64,000 nt of DNA from positions 696,814-760,813 of the forward strand of contig CM082585.2 in the NCBI GenBank assembly GCA_040954595.2. The letters are read 5' to 3'. The translations under genes were made by a program, and so were the position numbers. Each line of letters starts with the position of its first letter. Position 1 is the stretch's first letter. Below are positions 29,301-60,558 of the stretch, one piece after another. Under the pieces are notes generated by a model, which searched no databases, was not told where the DNA came from, and worked only from the letters and a program-made list of their open reading frames with translations. The stretch is from Balanoglossus misakiensis (Eukaryota > Animalia > Hemichordata).

Positions 29301-32300
29301 AAACACTCAAAATTAATGGGCAGCATACTGTCCACTCTGGCCTGGTTACTGTGTGCTCTGGTTAATGTTGACGCAAAGGTTGACCCCACCAAACACTCAA
29401 AATTAATGGGCAGCATACTGTCCACTCTGGCCTGGTTACTGTGTGCTCTGGTTAATGTTGACGTACAGGTTGACCCCACCAAACACTCAAAATTAATGGG
29501 CAGCACACTGTCCACTACGGCCTGGTTACTGTGTGCTCTGGTGAATGTTAACGCAAAGGTTGACCCCACCAAACACTCAAAATTAATGGGCAGCACACTG
29601 GCCACTACGGCCTGGTTACTGTGTGCTCTGGTTAATGTTGACGCAAAGGTTGACCCCACCAAACACTCAAAATTAATGGGCAGCATACTGTCCACTATGG
29701 CCTGGTTACTGTGTGCTCTGGTTAATGTTGACGCAAAGGTTGACCCCACCAAACACTCACAATTAATGGGCAGCATACTGTCCACTATGGCCTGGTTACT
29801 GTGTGCTCTGGTTAATGTTGACGCAAAGGTTGACCCCACCATACACTCAAAATTAATGGGCAGCATACTGTCCTATATGGCCTGGTTACTGTGTGCTCTG
29901 GTTAATGTTGACGCAAAGGTTGACCCCACCAAACACTCAAAAGTAATGGGCAGCACACTGTCAACTACGGCCTGGTTACTGTGTGCTCTGGTGAATGTTA
30001 ACGCAAAGGTTGACCCCACCAAACACTCAAAATTAATGGGCAGCATACTGTCCACTATGGCCTGGTTACTGTGTGCTCTGGTTAATGTTGACGCAAAGGT
30101 TGACCCCACCAAACACTCAAAATTAATGGGCAGCATACTGTCCACTATGGCCTGGTTACTGTGTGCTCTGGTTAATGTTGACGTAAAGGTTGACCCCACC
30201 AAACACTCAAAATTAATGGGCAGCACACTGTCCACTACGGCCTGGTTACTGTGTGCTCTGGTTAATGTTGACACAAAGGTTGACCCCACCAAACACTCAA
30301 AATTAATGGGCAGAACACTGTCCACTATGGCCTGGTTACTGTGTGCTCTGGTTAATGTTGACGCAAAGGTTGACCCCACCAAACACTCAAAATTAATGGG
30401 CAGGATACTGGCCACTCTGGCCTAGTTAATGTTGACGCAAAGGTTGACCCCCACCAAACACTCAAAATTAATGGGCACGATACTGGCCACTCTGGCCTAG
30501 TTAATGTTGACGCAAAGGTTGACCCCACCAAACACTCAAAATTAATGGGCACCACAGTGGCCACTCTGGCCTGGTTAATGTTGACGCAAAGGTTGACCCC
30601 ATCAAACCCTCAAAATTAATGGGCAGCATACTGTCCACTCTGGCCTGGTTACTGTGTGCTCTGGTTAATGTTGACGCAAAGGTTGACCCCACCAAACACT
30701 CAAAATTAATGGGCAGCATACTGTCCACTCTGGCCTGGTTACTGTGTGCTCTGGTTAATGTTGACGCAAAGGTTGACCCCACCAAACACTCAAAATTAAT
30801 GGGCAGCATACTGTCCACTCTGGCCCGGTTACTGTGTGCTCTGGTTAATGTTGACGCAAAGGTTGACCCCACCAAACACTCAAAATTAATTGGCAGCATA
30901 CTGTCCACTCTGGCCTGGTTACTGTGTGCTCTGGTTAATGTTGACGCAAAGGTTGACCCCACCAAACACTCAAAATTAATGGGCAGCATACTGTCCACTC
31001 TGGCCTGGTTACTGTGTGCTCTGGTTAATGTTGACGTACAGGTTGACCCCACCAACCACTCAAAATTAATGGGCAGCATACTGTCCACTATGGCCTGGTT
31101 ACTGTGTGCTCTGGTTAATGTTGACGCAAAGGTTGACCCCACCAAACACTCAAAATTAATTGGCAGCATACTGTCCACTATGGCCTGGTTACTGTGTGCT
31201 CTGGTTAATGTTGACGCAAAGGTTGACCCCACCAAACACTCAAATTTAATGGGCAGCATACTGTCCACTCTGGCCTGGTTACTGTGTGCTCTGGTTAATG
31301 TTGACGTACAGGTTGACCCCACCAACCACTCAAAATTAATGGGCAGCATACTGTCCACTATGGCCTGGTTACTGTGTGCTCTGGTTAATGTTGACGCAAA
31401 GGTTGACCCCACCAAACACTCAAAATTAATGGGCAGCATACTGTCCACTATGGCCTGGTTACTGTGTGCTCTGGTTAATGTTGACGCAAAGGTTGACCCC
31501 ACCAAACACTCAAAATTAATGGGCAGCACACTGTCCACTATGGCCTGGTTACTGTGTGCTCTGGTTAATGTTGACGCAAAGGTTGACCCCACCAAACACT
31601 CAAAATTAATGGGCAGAACACTGTCCACTATGGCCTGGTTACTGTGTGCTCTGGTTAATGTTGACGCAAAGGTTGACCCCACCAAACACTCAAAATTAAT
31701 GGGCAGAACACTGTCCACTATGGCCTGGTTACTGTGTGCTCTGGTTAATGTTGACGCAAAGGTTGACCCCACCAAACACTCAAAATTAATGGGCAGAACA
31801 CTGTCCACTATGGCCTGGTTACTGTGTGCTCTGGTTAATGTTGACGCAAAGGTTGACCCCACCAAACACTCAAAATTAATGGGCAGAACACTGTCCACTA
31901 TGGCCTGGTTACTGTGTGCTCTGGTTAATGTTGACGCAAAGGTTGACCCCACCAAACACTCAAAATTAATGGGCAGGATACTGGCCACTCTTGCCTAGTT
32001 AATGTTGACGCAAAGGTTGACCCCCACCAAACACTCAAAATTAATGGGCACGATACTGGCCACTCTGGCCTAGTTAATGTTGACGCAAAGGTTGACCCCA
32101 CCAAACACTCAAAATTAATGGGCACGACACTGGCCACTCTGGCATGGTTAATGTTGACGCAAAGGTTGACCCCACCAAACCCTCAAAATTAATTGGCAGC
32201 ACACTGTCCACTATGGCCTGGTTACTGTGTGCTCTGGTTAATGTTGACGCAAAGGTTGACCCCACCAAACACTCAAAATTAATGGGCAGAACACTGTCCA

Positions 32301-35300
32301 CTATGGCCTGGTTACTGTGTGCTCTGGTTAATGTTGACGCAAAGGTTGACCCCACCAAACACTCAAAATTAATGGGCAGAACACTGTCCACTATGGCCTG
32401 GTTACTGTGTGCTCTGGTTAATGTTGACGCAAAGGTTGACCCCACCAAACACTCAAAATTAATGGGCAGCATACTGTCCACTATGGCCTGGTTACTGTGT
32501 GCACTGGTTAATGTTGACGCAAAGGTTGACCCCACCAAACACTCAAAATTAATGGGCAGCACACTGTCCACTATGGCCTGGTTACTGTGTGCTCTGGTTA
32601 ATGTTGATGCAAAGGTTGACCCCACCAAACACTCACAATTAATGGGCAGCATACTGTCCACTATGGCCTGGTTACTGTGTGCTCTGGTTAATGTTGACGC
32701 AAAGGTTGACCCCACCAAACACTCAAAATTAATGGGCAGCACACTGTCCACTATGGCCTGGTTACTGTGTGCTCTGGTTAATGTTGACGCAAAGGTTGAC
32801 CCCACCAAACACTCAAAATTAATGGGCAGAACACTGTCCACTATGGCCTGGTTACTGTGTGCTCTGGTTAATGTTGACGCAAAGGTTGACCCCACCAAAC
32901 ACTCAAAATTAATGGGCAGAACACTGTCCACTATGGCCTGGTTACTGTGTGCTCTGGTTAATGTTGATGCAAAGGTTGACCCTACCAAACACTCAAAATT
33001 AATGGGCAGGATACTGGCCACTCTTGCCTAGTTAATGTTGACGCAAAGGTTGACCCCCACTAAACACTCAAAATTAATGGGCACGATACTGGCCACTCTG
33101 GCCTAGTTAATGTTGACGCAAAGGTTGACCCCACCAAACACTCAAAATTAATGGGCACGACACTGGCCACTCTGGCATGGTTAATGTTGACGCAAAGGTT
33201 GACCCCACCAAACCCTCAAAATTAATTGGCAGCACACTGTCCACTATGGCCTGGTTACTGTGTGCTCTGGTTAATGTTGACGCAAAGGTTGACCCCACCA
33301 AACACTCAAAATTAATGGGCAGCATACTGTCCACTCTGGCCTGGTTACTGTGTGCTCTGGTTAATGTTGACGCAAAGGTTGACCCCACCAAACACTCAAA
33401 ATTAATGGGCAGAACACTGTCCACTATGGCCTGGTTACTGTGTGCTCTGGTTAATGTTGACGCAAAGGTTGACCCCACCAAACACTCAAAATTAATGGGC
33501 AGCATACTGTCCACTATGGCCTGGTTACTGTGTGCTCTGGTTAATGTTGACGCAAAGGTTGACCCCACCAAACACTCAAAATAAATGGGCAGCACACTGT
33601 CCACTATGGCCTGGTTACTGTGTGCTCTGGTTAATGTTGACGCAAAGGTTGACCCCACCAAACACTCAAAATTAATGGGCAGAACACTGTCCACTATGGC
33701 CTGGTTACTGTGTGCTCTGGTTAATGTTGACGCAAAGGTTGACCCCACCAAACACTCAAAATTAATGGGCAGAACACTGTCCACTATGGCCTGGTTACTG
33801 TGTGCTCTGGTTAATGTTGACGCAAAGGTTGACCCCACCAAACACTCCAAATTAATGGGCAGGATACTGGCCACTCTTGCCTAGTTAATGTTGACGCAAA
33901 GGTTGACCCCCACCAAACACTCAAAATTAATGGGCACGATACTGGCCACTCTGGCCTAGTTAATGTTGACGCAAAGGTTGACCCCACCAAACACTCAAAA
34001 TTAATGGGCACGACACTGGCCACTCTGGCATGGTTAATGTTGACGCAAAGGTTGACCCCACCAAACCCTCAAAATTAATGGGCAGCACACTGTCCACTAT
34101 GGCCTGGTTACTGTGTGCTCTGGTTAATGTTGACGCAAAGGTTGACCCCACCAAACACTCAAAATTAATGGGCAGAACACTGTCCACTATGGCCTGGTTA
34201 CTGTGTGCTCTGGTTAATGTTGACGCAAAGGTTGACCCCACCAAACACTCAAAATTAATGGGCAGAACACTGTCCACTATGGCCTGGTTACTGTGTGCTC
34301 TGGTTAATGTTGACGCAAAGGTTGACCCCACCAAACACTCAAAATTAATGGGCAGGATACTGGCCACTCTTGCCTAGTTAATGTTGACGCAAAGGTTGAC
34401 CCCCACCAAACACTCAAAATTAATGGGCACGATACTGGCCACTCTGGCCTAGTTACTGTGTGCTCTGGTTAATGTTGACGCAAAGGTTGACCCCACCAAA
34501 CACTCAAAATTAATGGGCAGAACACTGTCCACTATGGCCTGGTTACTGTGTGCTCTGGTTAATGTTGACGCAAAGGTTGACCCCACCAAACACTCAAAAT
34601 TAATGGGCAGCATACTGTCCACTATGGCCTGGTTACTGTGTGCACTGGTTAATGTTGACGCAAAGGTTGACCCCACCAAACACTCAAAATTAATGGGCAG
34701 CACACTGTCCACTATGGCCTGGTTACTGTGTGCTCTGGTTAATGTTGATGCAAAGGTTGACCCCACCAAACACTCACAATTAATGGGCAGCATACTGTCC
34801 ACTATGGCCTGGTTACTGTGTGCTCTGGTTAATGTTGACGCAAAGGTTGACCCCACCAAACACTCAAAATTAATGGGCAGCACACTGTCCACTATGGCCT
34901 GGTTACTGTGTGCTCTGGTTAATGTTGACGCAAAGGTTGACCCCACCAAACACTCAAAATTAATGGGCAGAACACTGTCCACTATGGCCTGGTTACTGTG
35001 TGCTCTGGTTAATGTTGACGCAAAGGTTGACCCCACCAAACACTCAAAATTAATGGGCAGAACACTGTCCACTATGGCCTGGTTACTGTGTGCTCTGGTT
35101 AATGTTGATGCAAAGGTTGACCCTACCAAACACTCAAAATTAATGGGCAGGATACTGGCCACTCTTGCCTAGTTAATGTTGACGCAAAGGTTGACCCCCA
35201 CTAAACACTCAAAATTAATGGGCACGATACTGGCCACTCTGGCCTAGTTAATGTTGACGCAAAGGTTGACCCCACCAAACACTCAAAATTAATGGGCACG

Positions 35301-38300
35301 ACACTGGCCACTCTGGCATGGTTAATGTTGACGCAAAGGTTGACCCCACCAAACCCTCAAAATTAATTGGCAGCACACTGTCCACTATGGCCTGGTTACT
35401 GTGTGCTCTGGTTAATGTTGACGCAAAGGTTGACCCCACCAAACACTCAAAATTAATGGGCAGAACACTGTCCACTATGGCCTGGTTACTGTGTGCTCTG
35501 GTTAATGTTGACGCAAAGGTTGACCCCACCAAACACTCAAAATTAATGGGCAGAACACTGTCCACTATGGCCTGGTTACTGTGTGCTCTGGTTAATGTTG
35601 ACGCAAAGGTTGACCCCACCAAACACTCAAAATTAATGGGCAGCATACTGTCCACTATGGCCTGGTTACTGTGTGCTCTGGTTAATGTTGACGCAAAGGT
35701 TGACCCCACCAAACACTCAAAATAAATGGGCAGCACACTGTCCACTATGGCCTGGTTACTGTGTGCTCTGGTTAATGTTGACGCAAAGGTTGACCCCACC
35801 AAACACTCAAAATTAATGGGCAGAACACTGTCCACTATGGCCTGGTTACTGTGTGCTCTGGTTAATGTTGACGCAAAGGTTGACCCCACCAAACACTCCA
35901 AATTAATGGGCAGGATACTGGCCACTCTTGCCTAGTTAATGTTGACGCAAAGGTTGACCCCCACCAAACACTCAAAATTAATGGGCACGATACTGGCCAC
36001 TCTGGCCTAGTTAATGTTGACGCAAAGGTTGACCCCACCAAACACTCAAAATTAATGGGCACGACACTGGCCACTCTGGCATGGTTAATGTTGACGCAAA
36101 GGTTGACCCCACCAAACCCTCAAAATTAATGGGCAGCACACTGTCCACTATGGCCTGGTTACTGTGTGCTCTGGTTAATGTTGACGCAAAGGTTGACCCC
36201 ACCAAACACTCAAAATTAATGGGCAGAACACTGTCCACTATGGCCTGGTTACTGTGTGCTCTGGTTAATGTTGACGCAAAGGTTGACCCCACCAAACACT
36301 CAAAATTAATGGGCAGAACACTGTCCACTATGGCCTGGTTACTGTGTGCTCTGGTTAATGTTGACGCAAAGGTTGACCCCACCAAACACTCAAAATTAAT
36401 GGGCAGGATACTGGCCACTCTTGCCTAGTTAATGTTGACGCAAAGGTTGACCCCCACCAAACACTCAAAATTAATGGGCACGATACTGGCCACTCTGGCC
36501 TAGTTAATGTTGACGCAAAGGTTGACCCCACCAAACACTCAAAATTAATGGGCACGACACTGGCCACTCTGGCCTGGTTAATGTTGACGCAAAGGTTGAC
36601 CCCACCAAACCCTCAAAATTAATGGGCAGCACACTGTCCACTATGGCCTGGTTACTGTGTGCTCTGGTTAATGTTGACGCAAAGGTTGACCCCACCAAAC
36701 ACTCAAAATTAATGGGCTGTGCTCTGGTTAATGTTGACGCAAAGGTTGACCCCACCAAACACTCAAAATTAATGGGCAGCACACTGTCCACTATGGCCTG
36801 GTTACTGTGTGCTCTGGTTAATGTTGACGCAAAGGTTGACCCCACCAAACACTCAAAATTAATGGGCAGCACACTGTCCACTATGGCCTGGTTACTGTGT
36901 GCTCTGGTTAATGTTGACGCAAAGGTTGACTCCACCAAACACTCTAAATTAATGGGCAGCACACTGTCCACTATGGCCTGGTTACTGTGTGCTCTGGTTA
37001 ATGTTGACGCAAAGGTTGACCCCACCAAACACTCAAAATTAATGGGCAGCACACTGTCCACTATGGCCTAGTTACTGTGTGCTCTGGTTAATGTTGACGC
37101 AAAGGTTGACCCCACCAAACACTCAAAATTAATGGGCAGCACACTGTCCACTATGGCCTGGTTACTGTGTGCTCTGGTTAATGTTGACGCAAAGGTTGAC
37201 CCCACCAAACACTCAAAATTAATGGGCAGCACACTGTCCACTATGGCCTGGTTACTGTGTGCTCTGGTTAATGTTGACGCAAAGGTTGACCCCACCAAAC
37301 ACTCAAAATTAATGGGCAGCACACTGTCCACTATGGCCTGGTTACTGTGTGCTCTGGTTAATGTTGACGCAAAGGTTGACCCCACCAAACACTCAAAATA
37401 AATGGGCAGCACACTGTCCACTATGGCCTGGTTACTGTGTGCTCTGGTTAATGTTGACGCAAAGGTTGACCCCACCAAACACTCAAAATTAATGGGCAGC
37501 ACACTGTCCACTATGGCCTGGTTACTGTGTGCTCTGGTTAATGTTGACGCAAAGGTTGACCCCACCAAACACTCAAAATTAATGGGCAGCACACTGTCCA
37601 CTATGGCCTGGTTACTGTGTGCTCTGGTTAATGTTGACGCAAAGGTTGACCCCACCAAACACTCAAAATTAATGGGCAGCACACTGTCCACTATGGCCTG
37701 GTTACTGTGTGCTCTGGTTAATGTTGACGCAAAGGTTGACCCCACCAAACACTCGAAATTAATGGGCAGCACACTGTCCACTATGGCCTGGTTACTGTGT
37801 GCTCTGGTTAATGTTGACGCAAAGGTTGACCCCACCAAACACTCGAAATTAATGGGCAGCACACTGTCCACTATGGCCTGGTTACTGTGTGCTCTGGTTA
37901 ATGTTGACGCAAAGGTTGACCCCACCAAACACTCGAAATTAATGGGCAGCACACTGTCCACTATGGCCTGGTTACTGTGTGCTCTGGTTAATGTTGACGC
38001 AAAGGTTGACCCCACCAAACATTCGAAATTAATGGGCAGCACACTATCCACTATGGCCTGGTTACTGTGTGCTCTGGTTAATGTTGACGCAAAGGTTGAC
38101 CCCACCAAACACTCAAAATTAATGGGCAGCACACTGTCCACTCTGGCCTGGTTACTGTGTTTTCTGGTTAATGTTGACGCAAAGGTTGACCCCACCAAAC
38201 ACTCAAAATTAATGGGCAGCACACTGTCCACTATGGCCTGGTTACTGTGTGCTCTGGTTAATGTTGACGCAAAGGTTGACCCCACCAAACACTCAAAATT

Positions 38301-41300
38301 AATGGGCTGTGCTCTGGTTAATGTTGACGCAAAGGTTGACCCCACTGTGTTCTCTGGTTAATGTTGACGCAAAGGTTGATCCCACGAAACACTCAAAATT
38401 AATGGGCAGCATACTGTCCACTCTGGCCTGGTTACTGTGTGCTCTGGTTTATGTTGACGCAAAGGTTGACCCCACCAAACACTCAAAATTAATGGGCAGC
38501 ATACTGTCCACTCTGGCCTGGTTACTGTGTGCTCTGGTTAATGTTGACGCAAAGGTTGACCCCACCAAACACTCAAAATTAATGGGCAGCACACTGTCCA
38601 CTATGGCCTGGTTACTGTGTGCTCTGGTTAATGTTGACGCAAAGGTTGACCCCACCAAACACTCAAAATTAATGGGCTGTGCTCTGGTTAATGTTGACGC
38701 AAAGGTTGACCACACCAAACACTCAAAATTAATGGGCAGCACACTGTCCACTATGGCCTGGTTACTGTGTGCTCTGGTTAATGTTGACACAAAGGTTGAC
38801 CCCCACCAAACACTCAAAATTAATGGGCACGATACTGGCCACTATGGCCTGGTTACTGTGTGCTCTGGTTAATGTTGACGCAAAGGTTGACCCCACCAAA
38901 CACTCAAAATTAATGGGCAGCACACTGTCCACTATGGACTGGTTACTGTGTGCTCTGGTTAATGTTGACACAAAGGTTGACCCCACCACACACTCAACAT
39001 TAATGGGCAGCACACTGTCCACTCTGGCCTGGTTACTGTGTGCTCTGGTTAATGTTGACGGAAAGGTTGACCCCACCAAACACTCAAAATTAATGGGCAG
39101 CATACTGTCCACTCTGGCCTGGTTACTGTGTGCTCTGGTTAATGTTGACGGAAAGGTTGACCCCACCAAACACTCAAAATTAATGGGCAGCATACTGTCC
39201 ACTCTGGCCTGGTTACTGTGTGCTCTGGTTAATGTTGACGCAAAGGTTGACCCCACTGTGTACTCTGGTTAATGTTGACGCAAAGGTTGATCCCACCAAA
39301 CACTCAAAATTAATGGGCAGCATACTGTCCACTCTGGCCTGGTTACTGTGTGCTCTGGTTAATGTTGACGCAAAGGTTGACCCCACCAAACACTCAAAAT
39401 TAATGGGCAGCATACTGTCCACCCTGGCCTGGTTACTGTGTGCTCTGGTTAATGTTGACGCAAAGGTTGACCCCACCAAACACTCAAAATTAATGGGCAG
39501 CACACTGTCCACTATGGCCTGGTTACTGTGTGCTCTGGTTAATGTTGACGCAAAGGTTGACCCCACCAAACACTCAAAATTAATGGGTAGCATACTGTCC
39601 ACTCTGGCCTGGTTACTGTGTGCTCTGGTTAATGTTGACGCAAAGGTTGACCCCACCGAACACTCAAAATTAATGGGCAGCATACTGTCCACTCTGGCCT
39701 GGTTAATGTTGACGCAAAGGTTGACCCCATCAAGCACTCAAAATTAATGGGCAGCATACTGTCCACTATGGCCTGGTTACTGTGTGCTCTGGTTTATGTT
39801 GACGCAAAGGTTGACCCCACCAAACACTCAAAATTAATGGGCAGCACACTGTCCACTATGGCCTGGTTACTGTGTGCTCTGGTTAATGTTGACGCAAAGG
39901 TTGACCCCACCAAACACTCAAAATTAATGGGCAGCACACTGTCCACTATGGCCTGGTTACTGTGTGCTCTGGTTAATGTTGACGCAAAGGTTGACCCCAC
40001 CAAACACTCAAAATTAATGGGCAGCACACTGTCCACTATGGCCTGGTTACTGTGTGCTCTGGTTAATGTTGACGCAAAGGTTGACCCCACCAAACACTCA
40101 AAATTAATGGGCAGCACACTGTCCACTATGGCCTGGTTACTGTGTGCTCTGGTTAATGTTGACGGAAAGGTTGACCCCACCAAACACTCAACATTAATGG
40201 GCAGCACACTGTCCACTCTGGCCTGGTTACTGTGTGCTCTGGTTAATGTTGACGGAAAGGTTGACCCCACCAAACACTCAAAATTAATGGGCAGCATACT
40301 GTCCACTCTGGCCTGGTTACTGTGTGCTCTGGTTAATGTTGACGGAAAGGTTGACCCCACCAAACACTCAAAATTAATGGGCAGCATACTGTCCACTCTG
40401 GCCTGGTTACTGTGTGCTCTGGTTAATGTTGACGCAAAGGTTGACCCCACTGTGTACTCTGGTTAATGTTGACGCAAAGGTTGATCCCACCAAACACTCA
40501 AAATTAATGGGCAGCATACTGTCCACTCTGGCCTGGTTACTGTGTGCTCTGGTTAATGTTGACGCAAAGGTTGACCCCACCAAACACTCAAAATTAATGG
40601 GCAGCATACTGTACACTCTGGCCTGGTTACTGTGTGCTCTGGTTAATGTTGACGCAAAGGTTGACCCCACCAAACACTCAAAATTAATGGGCAGCACACT
40701 GTCCACTATGGCCTGGTTACTGTGTGCTCTGGTTAATGTTGACGCAAAGGTTGACCCCACCAAACACTCAAAATTAATGGGTAGCATACTGTCCACTCTG
40801 GCCTGGTTACTGTGTGCTCTGGTTAATGTTGACGCAAAGGTTGACCCGACCGAACACTCAAAATTAATGGGCAGCATACTGTCCACTCTGGCCTGGTTAA
40901 TGTTGACGCAAAGGTTGACCCCATCAAGCACTCAAAATTAATGGGCAGCATACTGTCCACTATGGCCTGGTTACTGTGTGCTCTGGTTTATGTTGACGCA
41001 AAGGTTGACCCCACCAAACACTCAAAATTAATGGGCAGCATACTGTCCACTCTGGCCTCGTTACTGTGTGCTCTGATTAATGTTGACGCAAAGGTTGACC
41101 CCACCAAACACTCAAAATTAAATGGCAGCATACTGTCCACTCTGGCCTGGTTACTGTGTGCTCTGGTTAATGTTGACGCAAAGGTTGACCCCACCAAACA
41201 CTCAAAATTAATGGGCAGCATACTGTCCACTCTGGCCTGGTTACTGTGTGCTCTGGTTAATGTTGACGCAAAGGTTGACCACACCAAACACTCAAAATTA

Positions 41301-42372
41301 ATGGGCAGCACACTGTCCACTATGGCCTGGTTACTGTGTGCTCTGGTTAATGTTGACGCAAAGGTTGACCCCACCAAACACTCAAAATTAATGGGCAGCA
41401 CACTGTCCACTATGGCCTGGTTACTGTGTGCTCTGGTTAATGTTGACGCAAAGGTTGACCCCACCAAACACTCAAAATTAATGGGCAGCACACTGTCCAC
41501 TATGGCCTGGTTACTGTGTGCTCTGGTTAATGTTGACGCAAAGGTTGACCCCACCAAACACTCAAAATTAATGGGCAGCACACTGTCCACTATGGCCTGG
41601 TTACTGTGTGCTCTGGTTAATGTTGACGCAAAGGTTGACCCCACCAAACACTCAAAATTAATGGGCAGCACACTGTCCACTATGGCCTGGTTACTGTGTG
41701 CTCTGGTTAATGTTGACGCAAAGGTTGACCCCACCAAACACTCAAAATTAATGGGCAGCACACTGTCCACTATGGCCTGGTTACTGTGTGCTCTGGTTAA
41801 TGTTGACGCAAAGGTTGACCCCACCAAACACTCAAAATTAATGGGTAGCATACTGTCCACTCTGGCCTGGTTACTGTGTGCTCTGGTTAATGTTGACGCA
41901 AAGGTTGACCCCACCAAACACTCAAAATTAATGGGCAGCACACTGTCCACTATGGCCTGGTTACTGTGTGCTCTGGTTAATGTTGACGCAAAGGTTGACC
42001 CCACCAAACACTCAAAATTAATGGGCAGCACACTGTCCACTATGGCCTGGTTACTGTGTGCTCTGGTTAATGTTGACGCAAAGGTTGACCCCACCAAACA
42101 CTCAAAATTACTGGGCAGCATACTGTCCACTATGGCCTGGTTACTGTGTGCTCTGGTTAATGTTGACGCAAAGGTTGACCCCACCAAACACTCAAAATTA
42201 ATGGGCAGCATACTGTCCACTCTGGCCTGGTTACTGTGTGCTCTGGTTAATGTTGACGCAAAGGTTGACCCCACTGTGTACTCTGGTTAATGTTGACGCA
42301 AAGGTTGATCCCACGAAACACTCAGCATAATGTCCACTCTGGCCTGGTTACTGTGTGCTCTGGTTAATGTTA
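26325..42372. repeat. 16-kb satellite array, 90-bp monomer (about 180 units) with 74/75-, 60- and 41-bp deletion variants and higher-order duplications
   Basis: Monomer ggttaatgttgacgcaaaggttgaccccaccaaacactcaaaattaatgggcagcatactgtccactatggcctggttactgtgtgctct; explains all 30-aa repeat ORFs on both strands. Confidence 0.98.
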
Positions 42373-50875: not shown

Positions 50876-51000
50876 TATTCTGGATGTTGCAGGTCCCTGG
50901 ATTGTCCAAATACATTCTTGTAGAATGTAATAATTATCATCTGGGTATCCAGTGCTGTGAAAGGTCCCCGATTCACCAGTTTCCAAACCACCACATGTTC
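50876..51000 (-). pseudogene. uif-like exon: CUB1, N-terminal half, 3' end disrupted
   Basis: gatattcag|GAACATGT; GTCGGLETGESGTFHSTGYPDDNYYILQECIWTIQGPATSRI; no phase-0 GT donor before a stop. Confidence 0.85.
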
Positions 51001-51313
51001 CTGAATATCATTAAAATAAAAAGAAAGAGTATGTTTGTGTGATGTATGGTCATAAAGATTCAGCTCATCAAGTTGACGAAATTTCATTGATGATAAAATT
51101 ACTTCACCAACAGTGAGTATCCAATGTACATGTATAAAGCAATGTTTGTATTAGTATAAATCAAATGTAAACATTTTGAAACGACATTTATCACACCCAA
51201 AAATTCCAAGAACAGCATATTATGATTCTCTAATCTCAAACTATCAGTGTGACAGATGCCAGATTCTTAAAATACTTGGCCCAGTTTTGTTTCTGATTTA
51301 TATTTATGACATA

Positions 51314-51504
51314 CTGTAAAACAGGAAATTTTTCATGATATCAAAAGTGGCAACTGTTATGCGATGATTGATTTTCGCATTCTCATATTTCACGGCATTG
51401 TTATCTTCGAAAAACATTTTTACACAACTTGTTTATTTTCGCGTTTTTTTGGCTCTCGCATAGTTCGCAAAAATGTATCGCTCGCGAAAATTTCCTGTTT
51501 ACAG
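51314..51504. mobile_element. cgcgaaa-family TA MITE
   Basis: ta|ctgtaaaacaggaaatttt...aaaatttcctgtttacag|ta. Confidence 0.75.
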
Positions 51505-52484
51505 TACCAAATTCTTTGAGGATCAGACTTTCTGCTGACAGTTCAAAAGTAGTCTTTAGTTGCAAAGGAGATGATCATACAATTAAACCACGATCGTGAC
51601 GTCACACTATTCAATAGACAAGTCATTCACTGAGAGAACCTCCGTCTCACACAAAACCACAGGTTTAAAACCAAGTCCCGGGTAGTTCTAGAACTACCTC
51701 CGGGGGTTCTAGAACTACCGCAGGACTCAGTCTCACCTGTCGTAACAAAAATACAAATACACAATGCTTTATTTGCATAATTACATTTACTTCTATACCT
51801 GTATTCAAAGTACATTTCATTTGAATAGAGTAATTGTTATGTTAATTGAAAGCGAACTGGATATGCGACAGTCTCCGGATCATTTCATTCAATGCTTCAC
51901 ATTCACAGTTTTGTCTACTGACGTACAAAGCTAATGTCTTGGTGGCTCTCGAGAGTCTTCATAACATGATAATAAAAGTATAAAATAGACAAAAATCAAT
52001 TCACCAGAAACAAACTAACGTTGCAATAAATTAACTACAAATTTCTAGAAAATTATACTAAATCACATTATCCCCAGATTTGCTTGTATTACTCTAACCA
52101 GATGCTTCACTTCGATTTTGCTTCACTACCGACATGTAACAAGGTTGGCTGTTTTAGGCCTACTGTTTAACAAAACCCGCGTACCTTGCAAAATTCTGCT
52201 TACTTTTTGTTGCTGTTCACCAGACGTGGGTTTGTAATGTCGGACGGATTCACTTCGGTATCAAGTCTTTTCGCAGATGAGTTACTCACCAATATCGCTA
52301 CCATACAGACGCGTTGCCGCTGCGGCTCGTAGAGAGTGGTTCGTTCAAAAGCCAGGGAGGCCAATACACAGACGGGCAGTAGTACCATGTAGAGCATTGT
52401 TACCCGGTTTTTGCTTTAACAACATGTAGCCGCTTGTTTTCGCAGATGATATAGATCGGAACTACATGTATCTTCAGATCAATT

Positions 52485-52561
52485 ATATAATATTTAAAGC
52501 CTCGTCACTCCGCTCAAGGATTATCCTATTGTTTAAGTATTGGGATCGGGATGTTCATTGT
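52485..52561 (-). repeat. Split direct repeat B2 (77 bp), 3' terminus
   Basis: Matches 52815-52891 with one mismatch (ctcgtcac vs ctcatcac). Confidence 0.95.
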
Positions 52562-52699
52562 GGAAATCCAGAAGCGAAGTGATTAAGACATTCAAGGCGA
52601 GGGTGGGTGGGTGGGAAATTTTGACCCGCCTGTGCCATGAACATACATTCCACCTGATCAGCAATACCCCTAAATTGTTCGCAGTTCTTGCCCTCTTCC

Positions 52700-52814
52700 T
52701 CGGTGCCTAGCCAAGGAATGACACTGTATCTTGTCTTCACTTAGCTTTTATATACTTCATGAATATTAATGAGATATCGCGGATGTATTTCGCTCAGTAA
52801 TGAGGCTTTGAATA
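52700..52814 (-). repeat. Split direct repeat A2 (115 bp)
   Basis: Identical by eye to 58661-58775. Confidence 0.95.
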
Positions 52815-52891
52815 ATATAATATTTAAAGCCTCATCACTCCGCTCAAGGATTATCCTATTGTTTAAGTATTGGGATCGGGATGTTCATTGT
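52815..52891 (-). repeat. Split direct repeat B1 (77 bp), directly abutting A2
   Basis: Matches 52485-52561. Confidence 0.95.
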
Positions 52892-53307
52892 TTTCATCTT
52901 TGCCGCGGTTATCTAACATTCCAATACTAACTTACATTCCACCCAATCCTCCAAATCTTCAAAAAGCTTTTCCCTTCACTCTCCCACAACTCATCCCCAA
53001 CCCTATACCTGATACTACACTTCCCAGCGCACCCCATACAGACACCCCAAACATACCAAATATATTATCATACATACAACCTTGAGTGCAGTTAATTCGT
53101 CAAAAATTATATTTTACTTCATTGTATAACCTATACCACTAGGGCTAATACTAAATTATTTTCCACACCAAACAACTTGTCTATACATGAGACACTCAAA
53201 TAGGTTATATTCACCTCTGTCAGTATTCTATATTTTGTATATCCTTTCTGTTTTAAAATGGGCGTAATGGTGTGTAGTGTTTTATCCCAAATCTGTTCTA
53301 TTCAATG

Positions 53308-54564
53308 CTAAAAAGCGACCGTAAACCCAGATAGCTGGTCCATGTCCTCGTAATCATTAGTTTCGGCGATGCAGTCTGTTACTTCTCTAATCTTTTCTGC
53401 CGTAGCTCCCGGGGATGACACAGACAGCAATTTGGTGTAATGGTTAGCCATAGTCTCTGTTCGCCATCCAACATGGTCCATCACTTGCTGAATACTAGCC
53501 CCAGCTAGAGACATGGTGATGGCACAGGCACTTCTAATACTATGTGGTGTCTCCCCTTCATCTATGTTGAGTTCTTGTAGGTATAACTTTAGTCGTTGAT
53601 AGACAACCTGCGAGGACAGTGATTTATTTTCCACATAGCCATCAGGGGTTGTTGGTCTAAAGAGGAAACCAGTACGCAGTGAGTAACCAAGGGTCTCCGC
53701 TAGCTGAACATATTGCTCGAGTGTATTAATTGGACACAGCCTTATATTCTGACATCTTTTAATTGCAAACATATTCGTTCCGGCTCCACGTAAAGTCTTG
53801 CCAAACGTATGATTAAAGATCATGCCCGAATTATCTGGGAAACGGAGCACTTCCTGAGTTTTAACTTGTCCAAGATCACCCGCCCTGTCACCTGAGAAGA
53901 ACAAAATCTTGAGAAAAGCAAGATCCCTCGCATACATATACAGGAGTATCGTTGATGGCGCTGTTACCATCTTATTTAAGATGTGGTTAAAAACCTTATC
54001 TAATTTAGGCCAAAATAATGGCTTGGGTTGTTTGGGCGTAATATTCGCCTTGGCTTGCTCCTCTGATACCTTTTTAATATAACGTTGTACCATTACGGAA
54101 TTTGCTGGATTTTGTGTGTGTTTACATTGATACTGACGTATAGCTTCATAATAAGCTGACAACTTTGAAACCATGTTCCGAATTGTACCCTCTCTCAAGC
54201 GCCTTGGGCAGTCACAAGGCATATGACCAAAACGACCTAAGTATTCGCAGTTAAATCGATGAACCTGCGTTCTCGCATCTTTGTCTTTGAAAACAAGAAA
54301 ACGAACTACCTCTTGCGGACCCGCTAATGTTACTGACGTCGATGTTGGTAAGTTTGCCAAAAACAGTTCGAATTGCTGGATTAAGCGATCTTTCTGAACT
54401 TCATACGCAGATTTTTGGCCCAATAAATCAGAGATACGTTGATCAATCTCATCTAGCTTTATGGAATCATCATCAACCTTAGGCCCTGGTGTCGGAATAG
54501 CTGATTGACATACGCCACATAACTTGAGATTGGGTACGTTCAAAGCACCACAAATCCAGCACAT
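53308..54564 (-). CDS. Tyrosine recombinase with N-terminal C4 zinc finger and ALOG domain
   Basis: CWIC...CGVC finger; ALOG signature TQVHRFNC...PCDCPRRLREGTIRNMVSKL...NPANSVMVQRYIKKVSEEQAKA; catalytic motifs GDRAGDL, GKT, HSIR, HVGW and NHYTK all intact; ATG directly follows a 3' splice site. Confidence 0.95.
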   Translation of the reverse strand: MCWICGALNVPNLKLCGVCQSAIPTPGPKVDDDSIKLDEIDQRISDLLGQKSAYEVQKDRLIQQFELFLANLPTSTSVTLAGPQEVVRFLVFKDKDARTQVHRFNCEYLGRFGHMPCDCPRRLREGTIRNMVSKLSAYYEAIRQYQCKHTQNPANSVMVQRYIKKVSEEQAKANITPKQPKPLFWPKLDKVFNHILNKMVTAPSTILLYMYARDLAFLKILFFSGDRAGDLGQVKTQEVLRFPDNSGMIFNHTFGKTLRGAGTNMFAIKRCQNIRLCPINTLEQYVQLAETLGYSLRTGFLFRPTTPDGYVENKSLSSQVVYQRLKLYLQELNIDEGETPHSIRSACAITMSLAGASIQQVMDHVGWRTETMANHYTKLLSVSSPGATAEKIREVTDCIAETNDYEDMDQLSGFTVAF

Positions 54565-54796
54565 CTGTTCACAAAAAATAACACACAAAAGATTAAGAAA
54601 GAATGTTTTATAACCTTTTCAGCATTTATTACATATCATCTTAGAAGTAGTTGCCAGTACATGCCGTGACATTATCCCTGCAGTACTAGTATAAAATTTA
54701 TACAACCAAAGATTATCATAATACAGACAGCTATAAGTAAAGTTTCAATCTGTTCACTATAATCCCTTATATGAAGGTTCGACAAATCGTAGTACA

Positions 54797-55474
54797 TTAT
54801 TTTGAATACTCAAATGAGATTACGTAGAGATCACATGGGAGTGGGTGGTCAACATATCCCCGCCGTGAGGGCGCTTTAATAACATTCCTTTCCCCTTTAT
54901 TAGCGATTTTTGTTACTTTCCTGGTTTCATGTCTAATCAATGGCCAGTATGATTTCAAAAAACGAAACCTAGGCACTAAGACTGTAGCATTGAGTTTACT
55001 TTCAATAATGTGCTTAATTACCGCTGGCACTAGTATGAATGGCGGGTATACATATATCCTTTCTTTAGCCTTAAAACTATGATGGAAGAAGTTAACTCCT
55101 TCACAACCCATCTGATAAAACCGGGATACATAGCGGGGCAACCGCCTATTTGAGTAACTCGCCATGCCATCTACGTGATGTGGACCAAAGGTTCTGTCGA
55201 GCCTGTTCCACATGTCATCTGACAACATCGCATCGGTAAGCGACGTATCTCTCGATTGAGCATCAGCCTCATTGTTTTGAGATGAAACATGCGTCATAGT
55301 AAGTCGCACGTTACACTCAAAGCACAGATTAAATATATTCTTTAAGATCTCATTGAGACCAAGTACACGGGCCCCTGGAACACCATTATGCCACGCTTGT
55401 ACGACTGGCAAGGCATCCACGTATGCATCTACTCTCGTGTCGCGAATATAATGTTTAATCGCAGTTAATGCCCT
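54797..55474 (-). CDS. Pol C-terminal part: RNase H second half plus Dam-like N6-adenine methyltransferase domain (frameshifted from RT)
   Basis: RALTAIKHYIRDTRVDAYVDALPVV...HVSSQNNEADAQSR (RNase H), then VDGMASYSNRRLPRYVSRF...YVYPPF (DIRS/PAT methylase-like domain). Confidence 0.9.
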   Translation of the reverse strand, partial: RALTAIKHYIRDTRVDAYVDALPVVQAWHNGVPGARVLGLNEILKNIFNLCFECNVRLTMTHVSSQNNEADAQSRDTSLTDAMLSDDMWNRLDRTFGPHHVDGMASYSNRRLPRYVSRFYQMGCEGVNFFHHSFKAKERIYVYPPFILVPAVIKHIIESKLNATVLVPRFRFLKSYWPLIRHETRKVTKIANKGERNVIKAPSRRGYVDHPLPCDLYVISFEYSK

Positions 55475-56624
55475 GAATCGCCTCTGCTTCTTTCCTAACT
55501 ATAGGCATACCCCTCCATTCTACCTCCCACATATCACCCACTTCTATTTTCCGATTACCTAAATATGTTACAGCACCCCACCGAAAGCTACTTGAATCGG
55601 TAAAGATTGTTACACCCACATGTTTTTCCGTAGCCCAAGTGAATTTCCCCGACTTCTCAATAATTTCCTTCCATTGCTCAATTTCCTCCTTAAGTAGGCC
55701 TCTGACAGGTACAAGATTTCTTGCGTGTCGTGAAAACTTACTAGACGCTATAGCCATCTGCCGTATGTATAGTCGGGCGCATGGTATAGCTAGGGCCAAA
55801 GAAATACATTTTCCCATAAGTTTTTGAATAGAGGGTAAGGGAACGGCCCGCCTCGCTAAAATCTGATCAACCAACGTGAGGAATTTAATTTTTTTTGCAT
55901 CAGGGATAGAAAAGGATTGAGACTCCGAATCCACCGTCAAGCCTAACATTATGAGAGATGTGGTAGGATACAACAAACTCTTCTCTAGTGCTAAGAAATA
56001 TCCCGACTCTATTGCTAGTTTGCAAAGTATATAGGCCGCAGCTTGGGCTCTTTTAAGTGGGTTCCATGCCTCAATTGCTACCGTGTGATCTTGCTGTGGT
56101 ATTAACCCCCCACCATGCCTATCATCTATATATTGAATACAGGGGACCCCAAGTAATCTCGCAAAGTTGGTAACACAGTATCCCAATGTATGGTATACAT
56201 ACGCCGACAGTTTCCACCCAAAGGGCAATGTGTTATTTATATACCATACTCCCGCCCATTGAAAACCTACATACGTTCTGTCACATTGATTAACCAAAAT
56301 ATGGTCGTACCCACTCTTGTCGTCACATTTAAAGTGGTAGTCGTTACGTTCTAAATATCGAGAAACTTCAATCAAAGTATCCAATTTGAAAGGTATATCT
56401 TTAATCCATAGATTGAGATATCGCATGTCTATGCACATTCTTGGCTTGGTAGGGGTAGCAGGGGTAGCAAAGATCTCTCCACGGGCAACAGACTGTACAC
56501 TCGGTAAACTACCACCATCATTGTCCCGTCGAGGGGCGCCCTCTATGGTCACCCAATTGTAGTGATTTCGTTTAACCACCGTCGGATCAACCGGATATTG
56601 TAACTCCCATTCTGGTACATCAAA
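55455..56624 (-). CDS. Pol: reverse transcriptase plus RNase H first half
   Basis: KPRMCIDMRYLN, CDDKSGYDHI, LPFGW, YIDD, LGLTVDS, FTDSSSFRWGA, KEAEAI; frame breaks at about 55475. Confidence 0.95.
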   Translation of the reverse strand, partial: FDVPEWELQYPVDPTVVKRNHYNWVTIEGAPRRDNDGGSLPSVQSVARGEIFATPATPTKPRMCIDMRYLNLWIKDIPFKLDTLIEVSRYLERNDYHFKCDDKSGYDHILVNQCDRTYVGFQWAGVWYINNTLPFGWKLSAYVYHTLGYCVTNFARLLGVPCIQYIDDRHGGGLIPQQDHTVAIEAWNPLKRAQAAAYILCKLAIESGYFLALEKSLLYPTTSLIMLGLTVDSESQSFSIPDAKKIKFLTLVDQILARRAVPLPSIQKLMGKCISLALAIPCARLYIRQMAIASSKFSRHARNLVPVRGLLKEEIEQWKEIIEKSGKFTWATEKHVGVTIFTDSSSFRWGAVTYLGNRKIEVGDMWEVEWRGMPIVRKEAEAIQGINCD

Positions 56625-56889
56625 CTGAAACAACAAACACGCACGACTAAATTATACTTATGCAAAACAAGTATCCCACAGAAGGCCCCCCAAGACAGGA
56701 CCATGCGAATGGCAGGTTGCAAAAAGCAAAGGGCTTAAGTGAGGCCCCCTGTCAAGGAAGTCTAAATGAGACACTAACACACTAAGCGTATACAGTTGAA
56801 AATTTTTTTTTTTTTTTGAAATTTTATTTACAATGGCATCTGCCAAGGGAAATTCTCAAAATACACAATCACATGTTCTCTAGTGAAAC

Positions 56890-57387
56890 TCATTGTTCAT
56901 TTTGTTTTCCTCTACACTCACGAGCAAAGTGGCCCGGCTTGCCACATGTATAACATTTAAGCTCTCTTTTGGGACGTCTAAAAGTAAAACCTGCCCTCTG
57001 GTTATATGGTTGAAAACGATAGTAGCTACGAGCCCCGAAGGAATTACTAGCATTACTATTGGCGAACTTGGCGACCTTGGCAGCGATTTCTTCCTCCTCT
57101 TTATTCCCAAGTAACAACACTATCAAACGGCCAGCATCGGGTCCAAAATCATTTGCTTCAAACTGAGCTAACACGGCCCTAAACCGTGCTAATTTAGGGT
57201 GGGCTACCCTAGTAGCTCTATCCACTAGTGTACGAAGTGCATTCGTTATTTGTAGCCGTGACGTATAAAAGGATGGTGCATGGGCTATCTCCATCAACTT
57301 TTGAAGAGCATCAGCCACGTTAGCCCCGCCAACAGCTTTCTCCATTTCTTCCACCTTCGTCACTAAGTCATTAAATTTTGATTGCAT
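56890..57387 (-). CDS. Gag-like protein with CCHC zinc knuckle (probable exon 2)
   Basis: CYTCGKPGHFAREC knuckle; ATG directly after ttttgtattttccag. Confidence 0.9.
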   Translation of the reverse strand: MQSKFNDLVTKVEEMEKAVGGANVADALQKLMEIAHAPSFYTSRLQITNALRTLVDRATRVAHPKLARFRAVLAQFEANDFGPDAGRLIVLLLGNKEEEEIAAKVAKFANSNASNSFGARSYYRFQPYNQRAGFTFRRPKRELKCYTCGKPGHFARECRGKQNEQ

Positions 57388-57477
57388 CTGGAAAATACAA
57401 AATACGCCATAATTCATCAATTGCAAGTCCAAATATTTACGACTAGCCTGCAATCACCAGCCACCGCAGTTTCACAA

Positions 57478-57985
57478 AATGTGGCACTTACTTTCATCTA
57501 TTGTGCCTGCAAAAATTGGCATTCATTGTTCATCGACTGTGCCCACAAAACTTGGCACTTTTCATCCACTGTGCCCGCAAAAATTGGCACTTACTTTTCA
57601 TCCACTGTGCCCACAAAATTGGCACTTACTTTTCATCCACTGTGCCCACAAAAATTGGCACTCACTTTTCATCCACTGTGCCCACAAAATTGGCACTAAC
57701 TTTTCATCCACTATGCCCACAAAAATTTGCACTTACTTTTCATCCACTATGCCCACAAAAATTGGCACTTACGTTTCATCCACTGTGCCCACAAAAATTG
57801 GCACTTACTTTTCATCCACTTTGCCCACAAAAAATTGGCACTTTTTATCCACTGTGCCCACAAAAATTGGCACTTACTTGTCCTCCACTGTGCCCACAAA
57901 ATTTGGCACTTTCATCAACTCTGCCCACAAAATTGGCATTACCATCAACTGTGTGCCCACGCAAAAAAAAATTGGCACTTTCATT
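57478..57985. repeat. ~37-bp minisatellite, about 13 copies, inside the retrotransposon's putative first intron
   Basis: Unit aaattggcacttacttttcatccactgtgcccaca; ggcac and gtgcc are complementary within each unit. Confidence 0.95.
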
Positions 57986-58423
57986 TTTTTTTTTTTTTTT
58001 TTAAAGCGGCGCTACAAAAATTTTAGCATAAAAAAGTTACTAACTAGGGCCCACAAAATTCACACATGGTAAGCCGTACAAAAGCTATTCACACGACTAT
58101 TCAACAAGAAAAGAACATTGAGCTGCGACTCCCTCCGTCAAAAAGAATAATTATAACAGTGTACTAAAAACAAAAAAAGGGGAATAAGAAATAAATGTCC
58201 AAAAAAAAAAAACACGAGCTTTCGCCCGGCCTAACGTATCAAATCCACCTATGAAACTATCCTGTCTAGGAAAAAATGGGACCACACCCTGCCACGAAAC
58301 AAGTACGTCGGACACAATCATGTGAAACGGTCATTGTGGCTGTGATGAAACACACTTGACACCTGCATTCTATGGCAAATATAACACCTGTAGAAAAAAC
58401 GGAAAATATACAACAATGTATAC

Positions 58424-58651
58424 CTGCTTTTCTTTATCCTCTGTCACTGTATCGTTCGCTGAGGCAGCTGCAGCTACTGCTGGTCCTGCAGGTTGCATGG
58501 GAACAGTACTCGTACGAGTTGTCTTTTGCGGTCCCTGGGTACGGCTTGTACTGGGAACGGGCTGACTATGCGCCTGTACGAAAGAAGCACTTGCATCGCT
58601 CACGGTACTTGTAGTTCTTGTAGTGCTAGTGGTTCGAGTTGCAGCTTCCAT
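58424..58651 (-). CDS. Putative leader exon of the retrotransposon (76-aa T/S/A/P-rich peptide)
   Basis: ATG at 58651 (MEAATRTT...EDKEKQ) ending in CAG|GTATAC, phase 0; composition turns T-rich immediately afterwards. Confidence 0.6.
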
Positions 58652-58660
58652 GCTCGCTCG

Positions 58661-58775
58661 TCGGTGCCTAGCCAAGGAATGACACTGTATCTTGTCTTCA
58701 CTTAGCTTTTATATACTTCATGAATATTAATGAGATATCGCGGATGTATTTCGCTCAGTAATGAGGCTTTGAATA
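58661..58775 (-). repeat. Split direct repeat A1 (115 bp), 5' terminus
   Basis: Identical to 52700-52814. Confidence 0.95.
58703..58715 (-). promoter_or_regulatory. Candidate TATA box in repeat A1
   Basis: Minus strand reads TATATAAAAG about 55 nt upstream of the leader ATG; also present in A2. Confidence 0.5.
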
Positions 58776-59552
58776 TCATGGACATTTGAAGGAAAATAAA
58801 AAAAAAGTGACACTTACATGTAGGCCTACTGCATTTGGCCTAAAAAATTTTCGCGTAAGCTTACCATGTGCACGCAAAACCCCAATAGCTGTAACCCTTC
58901 CCATAATACACTACGTAACACACCTGTAAAGTTTAATTTGATGCAAATTAATGTTTGAAATGAGCATATCACTCCGACACGTAAGTATGAACATTTAGAG
59001 TAACACCTGTCAAGCGTGGGCGATCTTGTAAGGCCCAGCAGGGCGGTCTCGAACTACCTGCCCACGACATGATTCATTTATAGGAAAAGGGGTGGCCAAC
59101 CAAATTTCACAGTCAGCAATGAAGAATAAGCCTCTTTTGATAAGCTTTTGTTCGTTCATTTTATTGAATCGTTGAGTAAAACGACGTCTTTGTGGTACAC
59201 GAAGCTCCAATGGTGACAATGTCTGTGGGGGATCGTGGTTTAAGTTAGAGAACCACCTCCCCCTCAGTGGTTCTTGGTTTCCAATCGCCTCGGGCCTGCG
59301 GCCCTCGGCAATTCGAAACCAAGAACCACCTCGGGGTCGGTGGTTCTCTATTACATAAATAGTCTAAAAGAAATTGTTAAGTAAACATAACCATACAATT
59401 AATGAGTGGAATTATCTAGCGACAACTGGCCTCAATTTTGAATTTCAAATATAACACCATTCTGCACCCAAGGAGACATCACATGATCTGATCCCCCTTG
59501 TTTAACTTTTAGTGGTGAGCTCTTCCAAGTATATCTTGTATTGCTTAGGGGA

Positions 59553-59800
59553 CTCTCTCTCTCTCTCCTTCCCTCCCTTCCACCCCTCCCCCTCCCTCTC
59601 TAGCTCTCTCTAGCTTTCTCTCCCTCCCTACCCCTCTCTACCCCTCCCTCTCCCTCTAGTTCTCTCTCCCCCTCTCCCTCACTACCACCCTCCCTCCCTC
59701 CCTCCCTGTCACTCTCCAGCTCTCTCTCCCTCCCCTCTCCCCCCTCTCACTCTCCCCTCCCAGCCTCTCCCTCCCGCTCTTTTGCACACACTCTCTCTTA
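59553..59800 (+). repeat. Polypyrimidine (C/T) low-complexity tract
   Basis: Almost exclusively C and T over about 250 bp. Confidence 0.9.
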
Positions 59801-59893
59801 GTATATATATTGGGAGGTGACTACAGCAGTACGAGAAAAGTAAAGACCTGATGCGAGTAAGGGAAGATTCTAGCTGATTTGAATCAGACTTAC

Positions 59894-60109
59894 CCTCAGC
59901 ACAAGCTGCTACTTCACACATTGACAGACTGACATCATCACATCTTGCATGATACAATGGGTAATTATTTTCAAAGAGGTTTAACCTCACACATTACCCA
60001 GTGGAGGCATCAGGTTCTGTGTCTGCCCATCGACCATCAAAGACACTACTTTTCCTGCCATCTGAATAATCATATTCCACACTGCCATCTCGATTGGGTC
60101 CACTAAATC
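59894..60109 (-). pseudogene. uif-like exon: C-type lectin C-terminal part with in-frame TAA
   Basis: ttttatag|GATTT...GAGG|gtaagt; GFSGPNRDGSVEYDYSDG...WADTEPDASTG*CVRL...CDDVSLSMCEVAACAE. Confidence 0.85.
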
Positions 60110-60558
60110 CTATAAAATGGAAATAAAGAAAGAAGATGCATACAGCAGTGTTTCATCCAGGATGGGGGGGGGGGGGGGGGATATGTCCCCCTTTGCATGA
60201 ATAGTTGCACTCTTGCAAGGAGGGGAATGAGTGACATCGCTGAGTCTGTAAGGGGCACCATTTCCCCCTTGACAAATTTCTAGGGGGGTGCCAACATGCT
60301 GACAGTTGGCGAATTCCCTCATCCCTCCATGTGGATGAAAAACTGCATACAGAGTCACTTAATAGCAATATTTTGTGAGGTTATTGAGATGTAAAAAATA
60401 GGCTTTTCAATTACCATCTTGAGACAATTATCATTCAAGTGTTACTATGCAGTGCTCACTTGTAAACTGTCAAATTCCAAAACCAGTTATTTTTTACACT
60501 TGATACACCCACAAATTATTTGGGAACACTGAGAAACACTGTTAAAAGACACACTCAC

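Follow-up and report, generated by a model that had tools for sequence, protein, structure and literature searches.

The element and the palindrome at its repeat junction

The window (the whole 64,000-nt stretch of Balanoglossus misakiensis DNA analyzed here) contains a retrotransposon whose internal repeat junction lies in a palindrome, which raises the question of whether this palindrome is the site that the element's own tyrosine recombinase (YR) binds and cuts on integration and, if so, where the strands cross over. The features of the element are collected in Table 1. Gag, RT/RNase H, and YR ORFs are present and a DDE integrase is absent; the split direct repeats follow the order A1-B1-A2-B2 with the internal pair downstream of the YR, and an ALOG domain is found N-terminal to the YR catalytic domain. 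We obtained 149 homologs of this ALOG-YR, the closest 50% identical and marine animal relatives among them, and its nearest solved structures are LSH3 and Cre. Residues R221, K250, H335, R338, H358, and Y370 (numbered along the 412-aa query) are kept in 53 to 54 of the 54 aligned sequences. The methyltransferase (MT)-like region can be aligned to the corresponding C-terminal stretch of pol in an unbroken relative (E 7e-32), while its Pfam Dam match (E 0.074) is under the cut-off; we did not file the element as an Ngaro, a group without the MT domain. It belongs to the known ALOG-DIRS elements described in passages of PMC3537659, with PAT-type repeats. Compared with contigs of organism B, the pol of the window copy is missing about 350 nt (56453-56459), and the RNase H frame is broken near 55470, with the YR ORF open. 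Since its pol is broken, this copy is no autonomous test case.

Table 1. Features of the retrotransposon, its junction site, and the adjoining host bases (window positions)
Feature	Position	Strand	Remarks
Whole PAT-like DIRS retrotransposon with ALOG-YR, 6291 bp, A1-ORFs-B1|A2-B2	52485..58775	-	Joint 52484|58776 skips 6291 nt in X1, X2
Host target bases beyond B2, AATT on element strand, 3/4 like the arm's TATT	52481..52484	-	
Repeat B2, element 3' end, B arm + spacer	52485..52561	-	One change from B1 (52504)
Repeat A2, 115 bp	52700..52814	-	= 58661-58775; loose ends before 52700 in 4/4 runs
Palindromic junction site, likely YR donor	52800..52835	.	Extends to 52796-52839 at 17/19; architecture conserved
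A-side arm, the opening 15 nt of A2 (element strand), starts TATT	52800..52814	-	
6-bp spacer, TTATAT on element strand, last 6 nt of repeat B1	52815..52820	-	Crossover inferred at 52814|52815
Repeat B1, 77 bp	52815..52891	-	= 52485-52561
B-side arm	52821..52835	-	
ALOG + tyrosine recombinase ORF, open, R-K-H-R-H-Y present	53308..54618	-	ALOG_dom 3.5e-17; Phage_integrase 2.7e-12
RNase H C-terminal part + methyltransferase-like domain, frame separate from RT	54797..55498	-	Dam E 0.074, below cut-off
Reverse transcriptase and N-terminal part of RNase H	55455..56651	-	RVT_1 2.8e-05, below cut-off; internal deletion near 56455
Gag-like ORF with CCHC zinc knuckle	56890..57453	-	zf-CCHC 8e-08
~36-bp tandem repeat array, element 5' region	57476..57965	.	
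Repeat A1 at the 5' end of the element; has the A arm but no spacer	58661..58775	-	
Host target bases at spacer position before A1, CCATGA on element strand, unlike spacer	58776..58781	-	

Several further observations concern the element and its surroundings. The ~36-bp tandem array (57476-57965 and 58370-58708) separates a short ORF farther upstream from the gag ORF and is possibly intronic. Internally deleted copies (53349>56509 and 53426>56481, in sequencing runs X1 and X2) have lost most of pol and the YR and reach a depth like that of the full body; they are likely non-autonomous derivatives. Elsewhere in the window, GC is raised over 16 kb (26000-42000, about 0.47 vs. 0.32-0.37 around it), and strong palindromes outside the element occur at 372-412, 51680-51720, and 59246-59350.

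The first-pass annotation had read the junction as a pair of 15-bp inverted arms with one mismatch around a 6-bp spacer, and this reading proved correct: around ATATAA (52815-52820), the arms 52800-52814 (ATGAGGCTTTGAATA) and 52821-52835 are complementary at 14 of 15 positions, the sole mismatch being 52810/52825, and at 17 of 19 when the arms are widened. The palindrome is positioned at the exact B1|A2 border of the split direct repeats. Half-sites had also been claimed for both element ends, and they are there: the right end has a single arm (58761-58775) followed by host DNA, and the left end (52485-52505) has the spacer and the other arm with one change (52504). Could such a palindrome arise by chance in AT-rich terminal repeats? 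Its core is AT-rich, and a scan of the real 64-kb window (15-bp arms, at most one mismatch, 4-10 nt spacer) returned other such palindromes, in two further places only (372-412 and 51680-51720). Against a chance origin, no comparable palindrome appeared anywhere when the 6.5-kb element was simulated 150 times with an order-2 Markov model, and the relatives described below argue in the same direction.

Conservation and covariation in relatives

A profile search gave 80 metagenome loci (the best 80 of 276) and four loci in genome contigs, with YR identities of 32-49% (about 40%). A repeat pair was recovered in 17 of the 80 metagenome loci, the other 63 being without a usable pair; the repeats of L006 and L012, which are contig-end overlaps, were set aside. 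When only the B1/B2 repeats were used to locate the junctions, the B1 end showed a palindrome of at least 11/15 in 14 of 16 loci, or 13 of 15 without the window, vs. 26 of 2400 random positions scored by the same statistic. The junctions of L016 and L056 reached only 10/15, and B2 ends, where one arm is replaced by host DNA, scored 5-10. The inner motif RAATA-N6-TATTY is near-fixed, and the spacer of the relatives is asymmetric and mostly ends in C. Among 17 junctions located by their repeats, 15 have a 6-nt spacer in the AATA/TATT register; in L053 (at ~1690) and L072 (at ~4970) the center of the palindrome is longer or shorter than 6 nt. Both were excluded from the covariation and end counts for their other spacer register, as were L044 and L068, whose register is ambiguous, L013, a duplicate of the L026 insertion, and L054, where the contig ends.

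The 32 sites fall into 12 families. At outer arm positions 6-17, the nine repeat-defined families, which were not chosen for pairing, have 9.0 of 12 positions paired within a family vs. 4.6 of 12 across families (p 1e-6), and for all 12 families the values are 8.75 and 4.67 of 12. Many arm positions are occupied by A-T, G-C, C-G, and T-A pairs in different families. Pairing in the relatives stays above the cross-family level, fading, to 20-32 bp (p 0.01 and 0.003), an extension that the window copy does not have, and 1-nt bulges are tolerated (L021, L026). The first-pass annotation had made its reading depend on conservation in relatives; the palindrome is conserved, and in distant families its arms covary. 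Conservation at repeat-defined junctions and family-specific covariation of the outer arms refute the chance palindrome, to which we assign a negligible probability. Overall, the palindrome is real and conserved, and it is very probably the donor site of the YR.

The majority bases at arm positions 7-11 spell CACTG; a relation of the arms to YACTGTW, the motif of plant ALOG proteins (given in passages of PMC10927535), was examined and rejected by permutation (p = 0.67 and 0.69). Among viral contigs there were 2 and 32 pattern matches, with no relative among them. In L010, L039, L043, L061, and L073 a single B follows directly after the YR and A2 is missing, as recombination between B1 and B2 would leave them. 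Loci L081-L084 are contigs in bacterial MAGs that carry eukaryote-type retroelements, likely host contamination; L081 has an unbroken pol and YR.

Element ends, target bases, and the position of the crossover

Copies were taken from sequencing-run contigs (runs X1 and X2 are one sample, possibly that from which the window derives) and from relatives. High-copy host-repeat contigs of X1 and X2 join 52484 directly to 58776 with no shared letters, at depths of 2015 and 104; they represent paralogous copies of the host repeat and are not a proven empty allele of this locus. Since no letters are shared at the joint, the insertion occurred without target duplication, and a joint this clean places the crossover between the spacer and the A arm. 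The annotation had named copies that end at other positions as evidence against the site; the other copies share the same ends, and host copies free of the insertion have their joint there.

The repeat that hosts the insertion (52000-52484 and 58776-59300) is of very high copy number, with a summed contig depth of thousands to tens of thousands in X1/X2, and the element body has a depth of ~40-300 in these runs vs. thousands upward for the flanking host repeat. Rfam gave no matches across 51000-60500, host-repeat flanks included. A minor joint, 52486|58778, is present in X1 at a depth of 28 vs. 2015, where the bases that a host-repeat variant has at the spacer position end like the element spacer; it is either a plain polymorphism or an excision or recombination footprint. 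Two further B2-type ends in X1/X2 have unrelated flanks and 4- and 3-nt matches past the spacer. Site-specific insertion into one host repeat was rejected because other element ends have unrelated flanks. Around the crossover center, the pre-insertion site of the window has no symmetry (the best value, 12/22, lies elsewhere). In all four runs, contigs of diverged sister families align with the junction core (~52790-52851) and lose similarity to its left and right. Over its final ~35 nt (52815-52850), repeat B reaches up to ~20-50x the depth of the A repeat, the excess coming from diverged sister families; the B end is either the most conserved or the most abundant piece of the element.

To count ends, we searched with sequence that excludes the spacer and the inner four bases, and added two ends from repeat pairs; in the case of six B2 ends, the spacer used as reference was that of a different family member. 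The element spacer is kept in all 21 B2 ends (s1-s5 match in 96 of 105 cases, the last base in 18 of 21, so that three ends mismatch there) and is carried by none of the seven A1 ends (s1-s5 match in 7 of 35, the last base in 6 of 7). A-starts of L024, L064, and L068, at an atypical place, were excluded; all three also come without the element spacer. The presence of the spacer at every B2 end and at no A1 end puts the crossover at one spacer border. The bases of the host just past B2 are T, A, T, and T in 17, 16, 15, and 11 of the 21 ends (p 5e-6, 4e-6, 2e-4, and 0.04), and those beyond the fourth are near chance. Taken together, the end and target counts define a likeness between target and donor of about 4 nt, the last spacer base plus TAT, at the spacer/A-arm border; likeness of the target to the arm extends over ~3-4 nt on one side only. 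In the window's own target, neither the final base of the spacer nor the first T is matched. The first-pass annotation had allowed the crossover to lie within or next to ATATAA, and of these it is the second that applies, at the spacer/A-arm border only. Its proposal of a recombinase/site pair holds for the donor side; the natural partner is host DNA sharing ~4 nt and not a second lox-like site. As far as its sequence goes, then, the site is lox-like on the donor side only.

How many strand exchanges lie behind these ends? Two exchanges 6 bp apart across a non-matching spacer lead to heteroduplexes, and replication should then yield both arrangements equally. The 24 independent insertions (21 B2 ends and three loci known by A1 only) all have one arrangement, and none has the opposite one, which unbiased segregation predicts in half of them. 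As the end search ignored the spacer and the inner four bases, ends of the opposite pattern would have been caught. The same YR site could still be used in the canonical way of Cre, with two exchanges on a double-stranded circle and 6-bp heteroduplexes that are repaired or segregated with a strand bias. The arm-spacer-arm geometry suits such a course, Cre is the nearest catalytic relative with a structure, and the homology-tolerant integrases of conjugative transposons make such heteroduplexes. At the minor joint 52486|58778, the host-repeat variant has the final bases of the element's spacer, a result expected of a crossover within it, and strand-biased repair would produce the same end pattern. 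Weighing this against the 0/24 count, we regard two exchanges as rather unlikely. The end pattern is better fitted by a single strand exchange completed by the host, of the kind used by cer, CTX, and integrons, than by the two of Cre.

Strand exchange, folding, and known systems

Our preferred reading, which we hold to be probable, is that the palindrome at the B|A junction is the donor site bound and cut by the ALOG-YR, and that a single strand is exchanged where the spacer meets the A arm, leaving the host to complete the reaction. Reverse transcription would rebuild the B|A junction from its internal template, and YR monomers would occupy the arms. The cut would then be made at the spacer/A-arm border on the antisense (cDNA) strand, which is presumably where the YR geometry of Cre, Flp, and Int puts a cut at this border. 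On ligation the last spacer base would be matched, with the TAT of the target mimicking the inner arm, and the unmatched first five spacer bases may block the second exchange. The insertion might be completed by replication or by a host resolvase; ColE1 cer likewise undergoes one exchange and is completed by the host.

A palindrome of this kind may also fold. In the window, hairpin energies are near equal on both strands (-11.7 vs. -12.3 kcal/mol), with a z of about -3.8 on each, and the sense strand folds slightly better in 13 of 15 sites. G.T exceeds A.C by 14 to 4 among family representatives and by 21 to 12 among unique sites; the sense-strand G.T excess (17 vs. 7) has p 0.17 against a cross-family composition control. 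A strand-specific fold is therefore unsupported, the strands being alike in the window and the G.T excess within composition. One could nevertheless assign the palindrome to the reverse transcriptase, as an RNA or cDNA fold-back that guides template switching or end formation, with the YR reading a short core as in the trinucleotide model. Pairing to 32 bp in relatives goes beyond the need of two protein footprints, 1-nt bulges are tolerated, and the hairpin z and the better folding of the sense strand fit as well; the non-significant G.T excess and ends that fall exactly at an arm border do not. Moreover, the fixed 6-nt spacer, the near-invariant inner motif, and the target mimicry point to a protein readout, so we consider the fold-back quite improbable.

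Folding could serve the YR itself. DIRS-1 cDNA is single-stranded and antisense, according to passages of PMC7192593, and this makes a folded donor attractive: an antisense cDNA hairpin would be opened by the YR at its stem-loop border, in the manner of a hairpin telomere or a half-site, one strand would be spliced into a host site sharing ~4 nt, and replication would finish the insertion. We treat this route as a tentative and somewhat unlikely one. A duplex circle with a blocked second exchange would explain the ends equally well, and the G.T trend, if anything, would favor the sense strand and speak against an antisense hairpin. If true, the hairpin route would constitute single-strand integration in a eukaryote, with a geometry unlike that of attC or CTX, and possibly a general mechanism of DIRS elements.

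The preferred reading of one exchange on a palindromic donor adds a new variant, in its site plan and one-border crossover, to an element class that was already known. As of 2020, the specificity of DIRS-order recombinases was without experimental test, as stated in passages of PMC7192593. On offer now are a candidate donor site of 36-44 bp, at least 12 natural families of recombinase and site that differ in their arms, and predictions of where and on which strand the cut falls and of the target rule, which together make the DIRS integration step testable with oligonucleotides and one protein. Insertion of a donor into a target of 4 nt with no duplication would also recommend this eukaryotic YR as a tool for integration, and its cognate sites bear on the original DNA reading by the ALOG DNA-binding domain of plant regulators.

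Among described elements, the ALOG-containing DIRS1-type retroposons share the Zn-knuckle Gag, RT/RNase H, and ALOG-YR with the one analyzed here, as passages of Iyer and Aravind (2012, PMC3537659) set out, and carry an inactive-type adenine methylase where the window element has its MT-like region; their Ectocarpus copy has 159-bp terminal direct repeats, and the passages found mention no split repeats or junction site. PAT-like elements (PMC4157794, PMC3266345) share the A1-ORFs-B1-A2-B2 split direct repeats and the lack of target duplication, and they have an MT domain, to which the MT-like region below the Pfam cut-off may correspond; their junction is given as a short overlap, with no arm-spacer-arm site in the passages found. 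The circular-junction trinucleotide model of DIRS1, as described in parts of PMC3266345 and PMC7192593, has in common a short homology between junction and target and no duplication, and its commonest trinucleotide, ATT, forms part of the TATT with which the A arm opens. In DIRS1, unlike the window element, these sources describe inverted terminal repeats and an ICR; here, in contrast, the short homology is placed at a single edge of the 6-bp spacer, within a palindrome of 15-19 bp. Our search of the DIRS-order literature returned no description of a palindromic junction site, and an earlier mention in Goodwin and Poulter (2004) or Poulter and Butler (2015) is possible. The available parts of PMC7192593, PMC3266345, PMC3537659, PMC8547959, PMC3212892, PMC6681497, PMC13465315, and PMC4157794 do not mention a palindrome, and those of PMC2632668 do so only in unrelated contexts.

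Beyond retroelements, YR sites consist of arms around a 6-8 bp spacer, as part of PMC3212892 describes. The junction site shares with Cre-loxP and XerCD-dif two inverted arms, an asymmetric spacer of 6-8 bp, and the R-K-H-R-H-Y active site. Its arms span 15-19 bp vs. 11-13 bp in those systems, and, unlike theirs, its partner is nearly armless, without spacer homology, and its products have one crossover border. With CTX phage (passages of PMC3442271) and integron attC x attI recombination (passages of PMC4792948) it would share one strand exchange, replicative resolution, and a short homology beside the cut. A strand-specific fold giving two duplex arms, of the attC or CTX attP type, was not found in the window, which forms a simple hairpin: where the folded CTX and attC sites rebuild two duplex arms, the hairpin here would provide a single arm and be cut at its loop of 6 nt.
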